A stretch of DNA of 64,000 nt. Origin: Phoronis australis (taxonomy: Eukaryota; Animalia; Phoronida). The stretch covers positions 759,115-823,114 of the forward strand of contig NMRA01000012.1 of NCBI GenBank assembly GCA_002633005.1. Direction: 5' to 3'. Of the stretch, positions 5,344 to 46,082 are shown one piece after another (position 1 is the stretch's first letter; each line of letters begins with the position of its first letter). The notes below the pieces were generated by a model. It did no database searches. It was not told the DNA's origin and saw only the letters and a program-made list of their open reading frames with translations. The translations under genes and the position numbers were made by a program.

Positions 5344-7627
5344 TCATGCACTCTCCCGATTTTCTACAAGCTCCATTGTTCCATGTGTGGCGTTCAACAC
5401 AACCTGGTCTCCTGAAAAAATCAAAATAATGTAAGGAAGAAATAGTAGCATACTTCATCAACGATGTCTGTCTTTAGCCATTAAATAAGTTGCTATGGTT
5501 ATAGGAAACTTTGATTACAAACTTGTCAGGAATGCCTTGGGTGGGCCAGTAACGCAGTTCAACATCAAACTTTTATTCTTCATAAGAGACAGCATAAGCT
5601 TAGCTTGTTTACTTGTAATGTTCTAAGACTTATTTTCTAAATAATCAAATGCCTTTCTGGTTGATAAAAGAGGGACACGATAGACATAAAGCTCACCAGT
5701 TTTGAACACAGCAGTTGCTCTCTGCATGTTGACAACACAAGGAATACCATACTCCCGTGCAACGACGGCACCTAGTGGAGGAAGTGAAAAACACAACAAA
5801 TTGTTAAGTAATGCAAAATAGCCATGTTGCAATCTTGGGGACTTCATCGCATATGAACTAGACACTGATTTAAATAGTCTATAAACCCGTCTCATGCTGT
5901 GTACGTAATTTGTAAACGCGATATTAAGTACAGACTACTTTTAAGGACTTCCTGAGAGTTTCAGAATTTTGATGAGCTCAAGAATTTTGATTGTTCCAAG
6001 TATGTATGCTGTGGCTACTCAGCACAGTCTATCACAACAACATCGTGTTATGAGGCCACCAGAACTCTCTCTGACAAAACATAACAATCACAACAGACTG
6101 ACCATACATATCAGCAGCATGCTAAGCATAACGCATACTGAACCACATTTTCCAACCTGTCTTTTTCAATCGGATTTATTCAACACCAAAAACATTCTGG
6201 GTCTTCTAGCAGTGACTCCATCAAGTAGCTAACATGGGAACCAGCCTTTCCCTAACCTATGTAGTCCACATTCAAAAGCTCTGAAGTCACTTATAACCTT
6301 GCTGAAGAACATGCCAGTTAAGACTATAAGTAGTCAAAATAAAAAACTGGTGTATTTTGACTAAAAATTGTCAGCAGTGGATGCTTTGAGGACTTAAACT
6401 AGACCTAAACATGACCTGTGACATTGTTTACAAACTCATGTATTACGCTACAACTAGAAGATTTTGCTCAAAAATCTTTATTGGATCAAAGGTTAAAGCA
6501 ACTAGTATGACATTTGCTTATGTCACCCTACCGACAACAAATTGCACAGTTCTTACCATGTGACAATAGACCTCCCATCTCAGTGACCAGCCCTGATATC
6601 AATGGAAAGTATGGAGTCCACCCAACGTCAGTGTAATGAACAACTAAGATATCGCCAGCCTGTTGTACAATATGATATGGTTTAGTATATTGAACATAAT
6701 CATAGGGCAAGTAGCACCAGTCACAGAAAACAAGTTCCAATCTACTAAACATAGGCTAGCCAATTTTTAAACTCTCAACATCTGGGAGTTTCTCAGGCAA
6801 ACACAAAATTGGCTGGTCAATGCTTACTACTCCTCGTCATGTAAGGCTGACAAAACATAATTGGTCATGGTCTCTATATTTTTGAAAGTCAAGTCGGTGG
6901 TGCAGTATTTTTAGTTGCTCATTTTTCAACAAAGAAAATCGACCTGAAATGAGCAAATATGATGTGAGATTCATTTTTTTAATCATTGTTGGTCAAATTA
7001 TAGTCTTTCAAACTTTGCTTACACTTGTTTAAGTGCCTTTGTGCGTCTTTTCAGGCTGAAATTGATGCAGCCGGGAGGGTGGGGCGGGCATTTTTGTTTC
7101 ATTTTTCAGTAGATGAGCGCAGATTTCACAAAGAGTCAGGGTAGAGACCAGAACCAACTGTGCTTTTTCAGCCAAATATTTACAAGATAATTTAAGAATT
7201 TAGAATCAGTCATGCCAACAGCATGGCAACTTGTAGTTCATAAAATAAAACAAACTTTGACAACTTCATAATTATAAAATTTATTTTAAATAAAAAATCC
7301 TGACAAGTAGAATTCCTTAAATAGTTGCGTTATTCCAAATTTCACAAACACTCATCTTAGGTTATTTCCGAATCCCTGAACAACACACACATGCACGCAT
7401 GGACACACACACGGACACACACGGACACACACACCACACACGGACACACACACGGACACACACACAGACACACGGACACACACACACACCCTTACCTGTA
7501 TTGCGTCACAGAGTTCCAAACTGGTCACCACTCTAACTGTTCCTCGAATGACCCCATTACTCACAGGCATACCACAGAGTTTGACTCCAGTGGACAAAAA
7601 TGTAGTATCCTCTTGGTTGACATTTAT
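5344..7627 (-). CDS. Exons 33-36: C-terminal PEP-utilising mobile (phospho-His swivel) domain
   Basis: [18 protein letters not shown]...[48 protein letters not shown]...[22 protein letters not shown]. The His of the SHG motif is intact. Confidence 0.95.

Positions 7628-46082: not shown

Follow-up and report, generated by a model that had tools for sequence, protein, structure and literature searches.

The window analysed here is a 64,000-nucleotide stretch of the Phoronis australis genome. A gene of 36 exons and 35 introns runs along its minus strand from 46082 to 5344 and encodes 1329 aa; splice-aware alignment of 19 homologues delimits it, and six-frame motif searches place it on the same strand. 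The reading frame is unbroken, from the ATG at 46082 to a single terminal stop at 5346-5344. A sequence-only reading of the same DNA had proposed these gene ends and 35 introns, which the splice-aware model reproduces exactly, and had treated a broken frame as evidence against the gene; the model contains no internal stop. That reading did not cover aa 1-403 (exons 1-9), where a predicted membrane anchor and a double beta-barrel domain, previously unannotated in this gene, are found. The features, in window coordinates, are as follows:

46082-45983, 41646-41480, 38053-37797, 36255-36190, 35876-35763, 34772-34607, 33173-33121, 32579-32452, 31511-31364, 30123-29943, 29222-29107, 28254-28091, 27380-27310, 26712-26648, 25666-25596, 25142-25066, 24508-24391, 23427-23327, 22848-22777, 22028-21922, 21601-21529, 20571-20476, 20102-19935, 19326-19198, 18852-18768, 13614-13526, 12901-12839, 12355-12200, 11136-11033, 10064-10001, 8826-8663, 8301-8223, 7627-7496, 6659-6557, 5771-5697, 5411-5344, minus strand: whole gene, 36 coding exons (homology model and RNA joints)
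46028..46082, minus strand: predicted N-terminal membrane anchor, aa 1-19 (hydropathy 2.05 over aa 1-19)
31364..38053, minus strand: 25-phosphosteroid-lyase-like double beta-barrel (DUF7065 + DUF7064), aa about 90-400, exons 3-9 (profiles, weak Pfam matches)
34655..34678, minus strand: R267-D268-H-S-F-G-V-R274 motif, putatively catalytic (alignment with 25-phosphosteroid lyase, 25-PSL)
30124..31363, minus strand: intron 9, barrel/ATP-grasp junction (RNA joint, 1240 skipped bases)
21986..30050, minus strand: ATP-grasp domain (PPDK_N), aa about 425-760, with K447, R549, T568 and E733 (Pfam, alignment to rifampicin phosphotransferase, RPH)
7597..21986, minus strand: central substrate-binding domain, aa about 760-1215 (PF27448 on homologues; fold of homologue P0020)
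12254..12286, minus strand: RHGHR..RE.E motif, aa 1039-1049 (conserved; aligns with a different RPH segment)
10001..10015, minus strand: R1119, E1120 and K1123, equivalent to RPH R666, E667 and K670 of the second phosphotransfer step (alignment; roles from the available part of PMC4844700)
5344..7597, minus strand: swivel phospho-His domain, with H1282 at 6560-6558 (Pfam, alignment)

The splice signals are GT-AG in 34 introns and GC-AG in one; the sole GC-AG intron of the model spans 25667-26647, its exon-15 side lying outside the RNA-mapped stretches. Three raw, stranded RNA runs are available at low coverage (4-28 reads per joint per run at best). Among the joints listed, with 25200-26399 and its exon 15 left out, at least 9 of the 35 model introns are matched in length and place; the remaining 26 are based on homology and splice signals. 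First mates at the gene's joints lie on the plus strand in these three runs, so under the usual stranded protocol the gene's RNA is minus-strand. The contig run X4 contributes no model joint among the joints listed. The intron 9 joint is carried by five reads each in runs X1 and X2; its length equals that of the model intron, and it is drawn 6 bases off. Because this RNA joins exon 9 to exon 10, the barrel and the ATP-grasp domain belong to one transcript. The last intron is likewise backed by a joint (5411/5697).

Repeats mark several parts of the gene. A 73-bp tandem repeat (3.9 copies, 20515-20795) duplicates the acceptor and start of exon 22, and the RNA uses the last copy (joint 20571/21529). 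Many RNA reads that originate elsewhere in the genome align in part to intronic repeats at 13900-18200 and 35300-41100; these were counted as repeats, not as expression. Within intron 2, a plus-strand open frame of 175 aa (40869-41393) has no Pfam match at E 0.01; we take it to resemble an LTR-retrotransposon pol remnant. Outside the gene, the first exon of an HSDL2-like short-chain dehydrogenase lies on the plus strand at 48936-49385 (3kvo E 5e-30, 3e03 E 6e-32), head-to-head with the dikinase gene, 2.9 kb upstream, with a 40-N gap (46939-46978) between them.

Aa 425 to the C-terminus form an RPH-type dikinase. The sequence-only reading had described intact ATP-grasp motifs, a central RHGHR--RE-E motif and a C-terminal phospho-His motif, and all are located: VGGKG at aa 444-448, AVRSS at 547-551, DIEW at 731-734, RHGHR..RE.E at 1039-1049 and LLSHG at 1279-1283. 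The RHGHR motif is conserved, yet distinct from the catalytic Arg-Glu of RPH, which corresponds to RE..K at aa 1119-1123. The eight RPH residues K22, R117, T136, E297, R666, E667, K670 and H825, whose catalytic roles are demonstrated or proposed in the available part of PMC4844700, correspond to K447, R549, T568, E733, R1119, E1120, K1123 and H1282, and are near-invariant across 66 prokaryotic and 63 other homologues. Single exons match PPDK_N (E 4e-5 to 0.09) and PEP-utilizers (E 1.6e-8 and 1.1e-6), the Pfam result the earlier reading had expected; PEP-utilizers_C is reported in none of 27 window stretches and none of 14 homologues. Since the chain stops 47 residues after H1282, no pyruvate barrel follows. 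The earlier view that a 'PEP synthase' label would be wrong therefore holds: the half is RPH-type, carrying the complete set of eight essential catalytic residues and lacking a pyruvate barrel. The best PDB match, by sequence and by the predicted fold of P0020, is the Listeria rifampin phosphotransferase; P0020, a homologue and not the Phoronis protein, matches RPH 5hv1 at E 2e-40. Its order of ATP-grasp, substrate domain and C-terminal swivel His, together with the catalytic set, places the protein by sequence in the RPH-type small-molecule dikinase superfamily.

The N-terminal part is additional to the RPH-type domains. Its first 19 residues are predicted to anchor the protein in the membrane; a comparable hydrophobic segment occurs in 9 of 19 full-length homologues longer than 1250 aa. 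Weak matches to DUF7065 and DUF7064 come from exons 6 and 9 (E 1e-3, 19.7-19.8 bits, under the Pfam gathering cut-off), and homologues P0029 and P0028 clear the DUF7064 cut-off of 24.7 with 25.1 and 31.6 bits. Barrel-family profiles A4, A5 and A7 were built from 47, 17 and 32 members, and the model scores 426 bits on A4 and 358 bits on A7. Among 177,635 PDB sequences, at E up to 10, these three profiles match only the two 25-PSL sequences (E 5.4e-10, 6e-7 and 1.3e-12, respectively). Narrower queries (profile A1 of 10 rows, full-length profile A2, single homologue P0029) miss 25-PSL. As judged through the family profiles, the barrel is homologous to 25-phosphosteroid lyase.

Stand-alone forms of the barrel are found in snails and birds. 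The snail homologue P0051 folds as a double beta-barrel with pLDDT 89, a predicted structure of a homologue and not of the Phoronis protein. Foldseek with this model ranks 25-PSL first (E 4e-12), at a structural identity of 13-14%. In VIA-align, six superfamily members are nearly tied: AttH NE1406 (Z 24.8), Fsa2 (23.0), kievitone hydratase (22.8), CghA (22.8), 25-PSL (22.5) and the 7dmo pericyclase (22.2). Fold alone thus picks no lyase over hydratases or cyclases; the tie is broken by sequence, since 25-PSL is the only PDB match of the profiles.

The 25-PSL PDB sequences differ at one aligned letter within RDRSWGVR, which is Asn in 9g4c, the entry titled with phosphate and product, and Asp in the others. 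The Phoronis counterpart is RDHSFGVR, with D268 at the variable Asp/Asn place. Because Asp is replaced in the product-complex entry, we infer that it is catalytic. In the alignment with 25-PSL, the model keeps D92, Y95, Q243, R267, D268, S270, R274, E379 and E396 (Phoronis numbering); the Arg after the Asp in 25-PSL is H269 here, and the barrel carries an extra helical insert. The retained polar barrel residues would fit an eliminating function in Phoronis. Across the family, function may differ: of 55 fused homologue rows, only 30 retain D268, the barrels of arthropods and tunicates are eroded and lack the motif, and Ser takes the D268 place in copies from birds and turtle. In birds the barrel stands alone at ~410 aa, and in the turtle it is fused (P0053, P0054, P0060).

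Gene linkage adds a further line of evidence. The best 80 of 131 prokaryote loci retrieved with a seven-sequence bacterial barrel profile were compared, and in 74 of them the barrel gene has an RPH-type dikinase gene as its neighbour: directly downstream in 72, often with stop/start overlap, divergent in two and fused in none. Of the six loci without a dikinase, four run to the end of a contig or close to it; a dikinase of 44-45% identity is encoded elsewhere in the genomes of L031 and L033, and none was found in the genome of L046. As a control, the barrel appears in 0 of 30 generic RPH-like Bacillota loci (flanks of about 1.5 kb). The remaining genes around the bacterial pair differ from lineage to lineage and offer no hint of the substrate. 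A 728-aa Breznakiella ORF (L033:6873-9059) has a C-terminal barrel and an N-terminal part without Pfam match, which may merely reflect an early start codon.

In archaea, the barrel is present in 83 of 301 genomes of the Heimdallarchaeum phylum. A His-domain gene lies directly upstream of it in 20 of 27 distant archaeal loci examined, and all 10 extended His-domain loci, one of them cut by a contig end, hold an RPH-type dikinase 26-40% like the Phoronis one. A second archaeal dikinase-then-barrel operon (L141-L150) often sits beside RNase PH genes or histidine phosphatase, and an RDHTYG.RDW motif akin to the animal one can be read in 5 of its 10 barrels. A histidine phosphatase gene follows the pair in four archaeal ORFs scanned. 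Two other archaeal barrels adjoin ChsH2-type and thiolase-like genes, kinds known from steroid side-chain breakdown.

The barrel is not confined to dikinases. The profile search returned 1517 relatives; among 42 of the best 150, chosen for scanning by their C-terminal barrel, six are EcKL/APH kinase-barrel fusions, named in a diplonemid and an amoeba (both protists). Since related genomes inherit their gene order, the linkage counts do not represent independent events. What is independent is that gene order and kinase fold both change: the barrel travels with kinases.

The fused gene is widespread in animals. Used as query, the His-domain exon yields 51 candidates, of which 49 are relatives, including many animal proteins 1200-1390 aa long; exon 3 alone finds nothing. 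The closest relative is Lineus longissimus P0029 (47%). Fused forms are named in molluscs, nemerteans, an annelid, a flatworm, echinoderms, a hemichordate, a tunicate, a priapulid, arthropods, a shark and a turtle. Two partial relatives (P0021 and P0026, 40-41% like the model) are labelled Candidatus Thiodiazotropha MAG, possibly through host contamination of symbiont bins. A quick IQ-TREE analysis (LG+G4, 42 chosen rows) unites 17 animal dikinases in one clade (SH-aLRT 98), grouped with four metagenome proteins and sister to the prokaryotic operon clade. Metagenome proteins P0124, P0128 and P0116, which branch beside the animals, have barrel and dikinase in one ORF. FastTree (85 rows), unlike IQ-TREE, nests the prokaryote clade inside the animal rows. 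The phylogeny proposed earlier was realised in part: it yields an animal clade on 42 rows, not on 85, and its outgroup consists only of RPH-like Bacillota proteins, with PigC and YvkC left out. The 35 introns, the RNA joints and the single animal clade support an old host gene in animals, as the sequence-only reading had held, and not contamination. The data do not support an Asgard origin for the animal-type module: a close barrel (E under 1e-60) occurs in only 3 of the 301 genomes, and Heimdallarchaeum groups with bacteria.

Joining a bacterial-type phosphate-transfer enzyme to a 25-PSL-related domain makes ATP-driven dehydration likely. By analogy with both parents, the protein is probably, with chances moderately above even, a one-chain dehydratase: it would phosphorylate a lipophilic alcohol, and removal of the phosphate would then yield an alkene. 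Points that weigh against this reading are the near-tied fold scores, the low structural identity to 25-PSL, the narrower queries that miss it, the extra insert and H269, the patchy retention of D268 among fused homologues, and the lack of a lyase candidate near the kinase gene of Sterolibacterium denitrificans. In the first step, as in RPH, the ATP-grasp domain would move the ATP beta-phosphate to His1282, releasing AMP and Pi. The His domain would then swivel to the central domain, where R1119, E1120 and K1123 would phosphorylate a hydroxyl, probably tertiary or allylic. Finally, as in 25-PSL, the barrel would hold the phosphate ester in its Arg/His-rich site, and D268 would eliminate phosphate to give the alkene. 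With an ordinary kinase this kind of step is reversible; the two phosphoanhydride bonds spent here would push it forward. The lead guess for the substrate, a tentative one, is an alcohol at the membrane, either isoprenoid or on a sterol side chain.

The best placed of the rival explanations, unlikely as it is, makes the phospho-ester the end product, for detoxification or storage, as with RPH and YvkC; the barrel would then bind or deliver the lipid, or first hydrate a prenyl double bond in the manner of kievitone hydratase. Flavonoid phosphorylation by YvkC (available part of PMC13099321) is a kinase-only precedent, kievitone hydratase shares the tied fold score, arthropod and tunicate barrel motifs have eroded while the dikinase residues persist, and the archaeal histidine phosphatase genes fit as well. 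However, the Phoronis barrel keeps an Arg/His/Asp set suited to phosphate binding, and kievitone hydratase gives no sequence match at E up to 10. Because the N-terminal domain is homologous to 25-PSL, the phosphate ester is likelier an intermediate. Of the earlier proposal that the enzyme phosphorylates or activates a small molecule, phosphotransfer stands.

Slightly less probable again is a variant in which the same two steps use phosphate as leaving group not for elimination but for an allylic isomerisation, cyclisation or substitution. Pericyclases belong to the fold family, 16-21% of members in the atlas look-alikes carry the tocopherol cyclase family, and both the low identity to 25-PSL and the extra barrel insert leave room for other chemistry. 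Against this, the only PDB relative found by sequence is a lyase that works by elimination, and the two have the RD.S.G.R motif in common.

A PigC/RedH-like condensing enzyme or a rifamycin-inactivating kinase is very improbable, although the three-domain order is identical, Listeria RPH supplies the best PDB matches and database names agree. Homologues P0029 and P0059 fall far under the cut-offs for Rph, PigC, RedH and PEP synthase: 398 of 999 and 297 of 1700 bits for Rph, and, for P0029 (a homologue, not the joined model), 327 of 1300 and 310 of 1350 bits for PigC/RedH. Identity of the folded homologue to the RPH-Lm structures is 20-26%, versus over 42% within RPH clade A (available part of PMC4844700), and RPH Q337 is Glu in the model (E782). 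The kinship with RPH and PigC read earlier from the domain order is upheld, while membership in either family is not (closest homologue 398 vs 999 and 327 vs 1300 bits). As for a true PEP synthase or PPDK, suggested by annotation names and the PPDK_N domain, the C-terminal His domain 47 aa from the chain end, the missing pyruvate-binding domain and the statement in the available part of PMC4844700 that RPH enzymes do not use pyruvate reduce it to a negligible prospect.

A broader picture, less probable than the one-chain dehydratase itself and put forward tentatively, is that animals since the bilaterian ancestor carry this dehydratase to turn hydroxylated sterols or isoprenoids into alkenes without oxygen, that anaerobic bacteria and Asgard-group archaea keep the same module as two genes, and that it has been mis-annotated throughout as PEP synthase or rifampicin phosphotransferase. 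Conceivable conversions, offered as tentatively as the picture they illustrate, are 25-hydroxysterol to delta-24 sterol and a dietary prenyl alcohol to a diene. A literature search, with most subscription journals outside its scope, turned up no work on the animal enzyme or on DUF7064/7065, and no description in animals of ATP-driven water removal from a fat-soluble alcohol. The proposal would provide a testable reaction for a widespread animal protein family and for DUF7064/7065. If true, it would add a third, dikinase-built ATP-dependent dehydration system, located in animals, and a new step in animal lipid or sterol metabolism; it would correct the labels 'PEP synthase' and 'rifampicin phosphotransferase-like'; and it would offer a one-chain biocatalyst from alcohol to alkene.

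Several known systems share parts of this architecture. AttH-like double barrels (kievitone hydratase, the Diels-Alderases Fsa2/Phm7/CghA) are alike in fold (Z 22-25), with no sequence match at E up to 10. In PigC and RedH, the prodiginine ligases, phosphoryl activation of a substrate oxygen precedes a second chemical step; the domain order is alike, whereas the second step is predicted here to occur in a separate barrel. With the RPH-Lm/YvkC dikinases, the Phoronis protein has in common the ATP-grasp, central domain, C-terminal swivel His and eight catalytic residues; it differs from RPH-Lm in an extra 400-aa N-terminal barrel to which nothing in the solved RPH chains corresponds, in identity (20-26%, measured on a homologue), in the Q337 to E exchange and in scoring below the Rph cut-offs. 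Distant RPH clades are predicted to retain phosphotransfer on other substrates (available part of PMC4844700).

In Mycobacterium tuberculosis, Rv3168-Rv3169 form an operon (available part of PMC5340868) in which a kinase is paired with a related barrel, as in the protist EcKL-barrel fusions, but the kinase fold differs; Rv3168 is a putative aminoglycoside phosphotransferase (available part of PMC3691515). The barrel matches the Rv3169 family weakly (E 1.9e-7, 30.5 of 150 bits), far under the family cut-off.

The closest parallel in logic is Sterolibacterium denitrificans, where phosphorylation of a tertiary C25 alcohol is followed by phosphate elimination to a delta-24 alkene (available parts of PMC7411048, PMC11061730 and PMC8449060). 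The available text of PMC8449060 gives a Keq of 0.34 for the kinase 25-HSK, with the elimination considered irreversible and pulling the kinase step; it reports no lyase candidate near the kinase gene, and as of 2021 names only 25-HSK with its lyase and NAD(P)H-hydrate repair as ATP-dependent dehydration systems. 25-PSL (PDB 9fzn, 9g2i, 9g4c) and the Phoronis barrel are homologous and share the RD.S.G.R motif, and the same phosphorylate-then-eliminate logic is predicted here. The bacterium uses two separate proteins, including a 40-kDa ternary-complex kinase, whereas in Phoronis a single chain holds the barrel, a predicted anchor and a dikinase of the unrelated phospho-His type.
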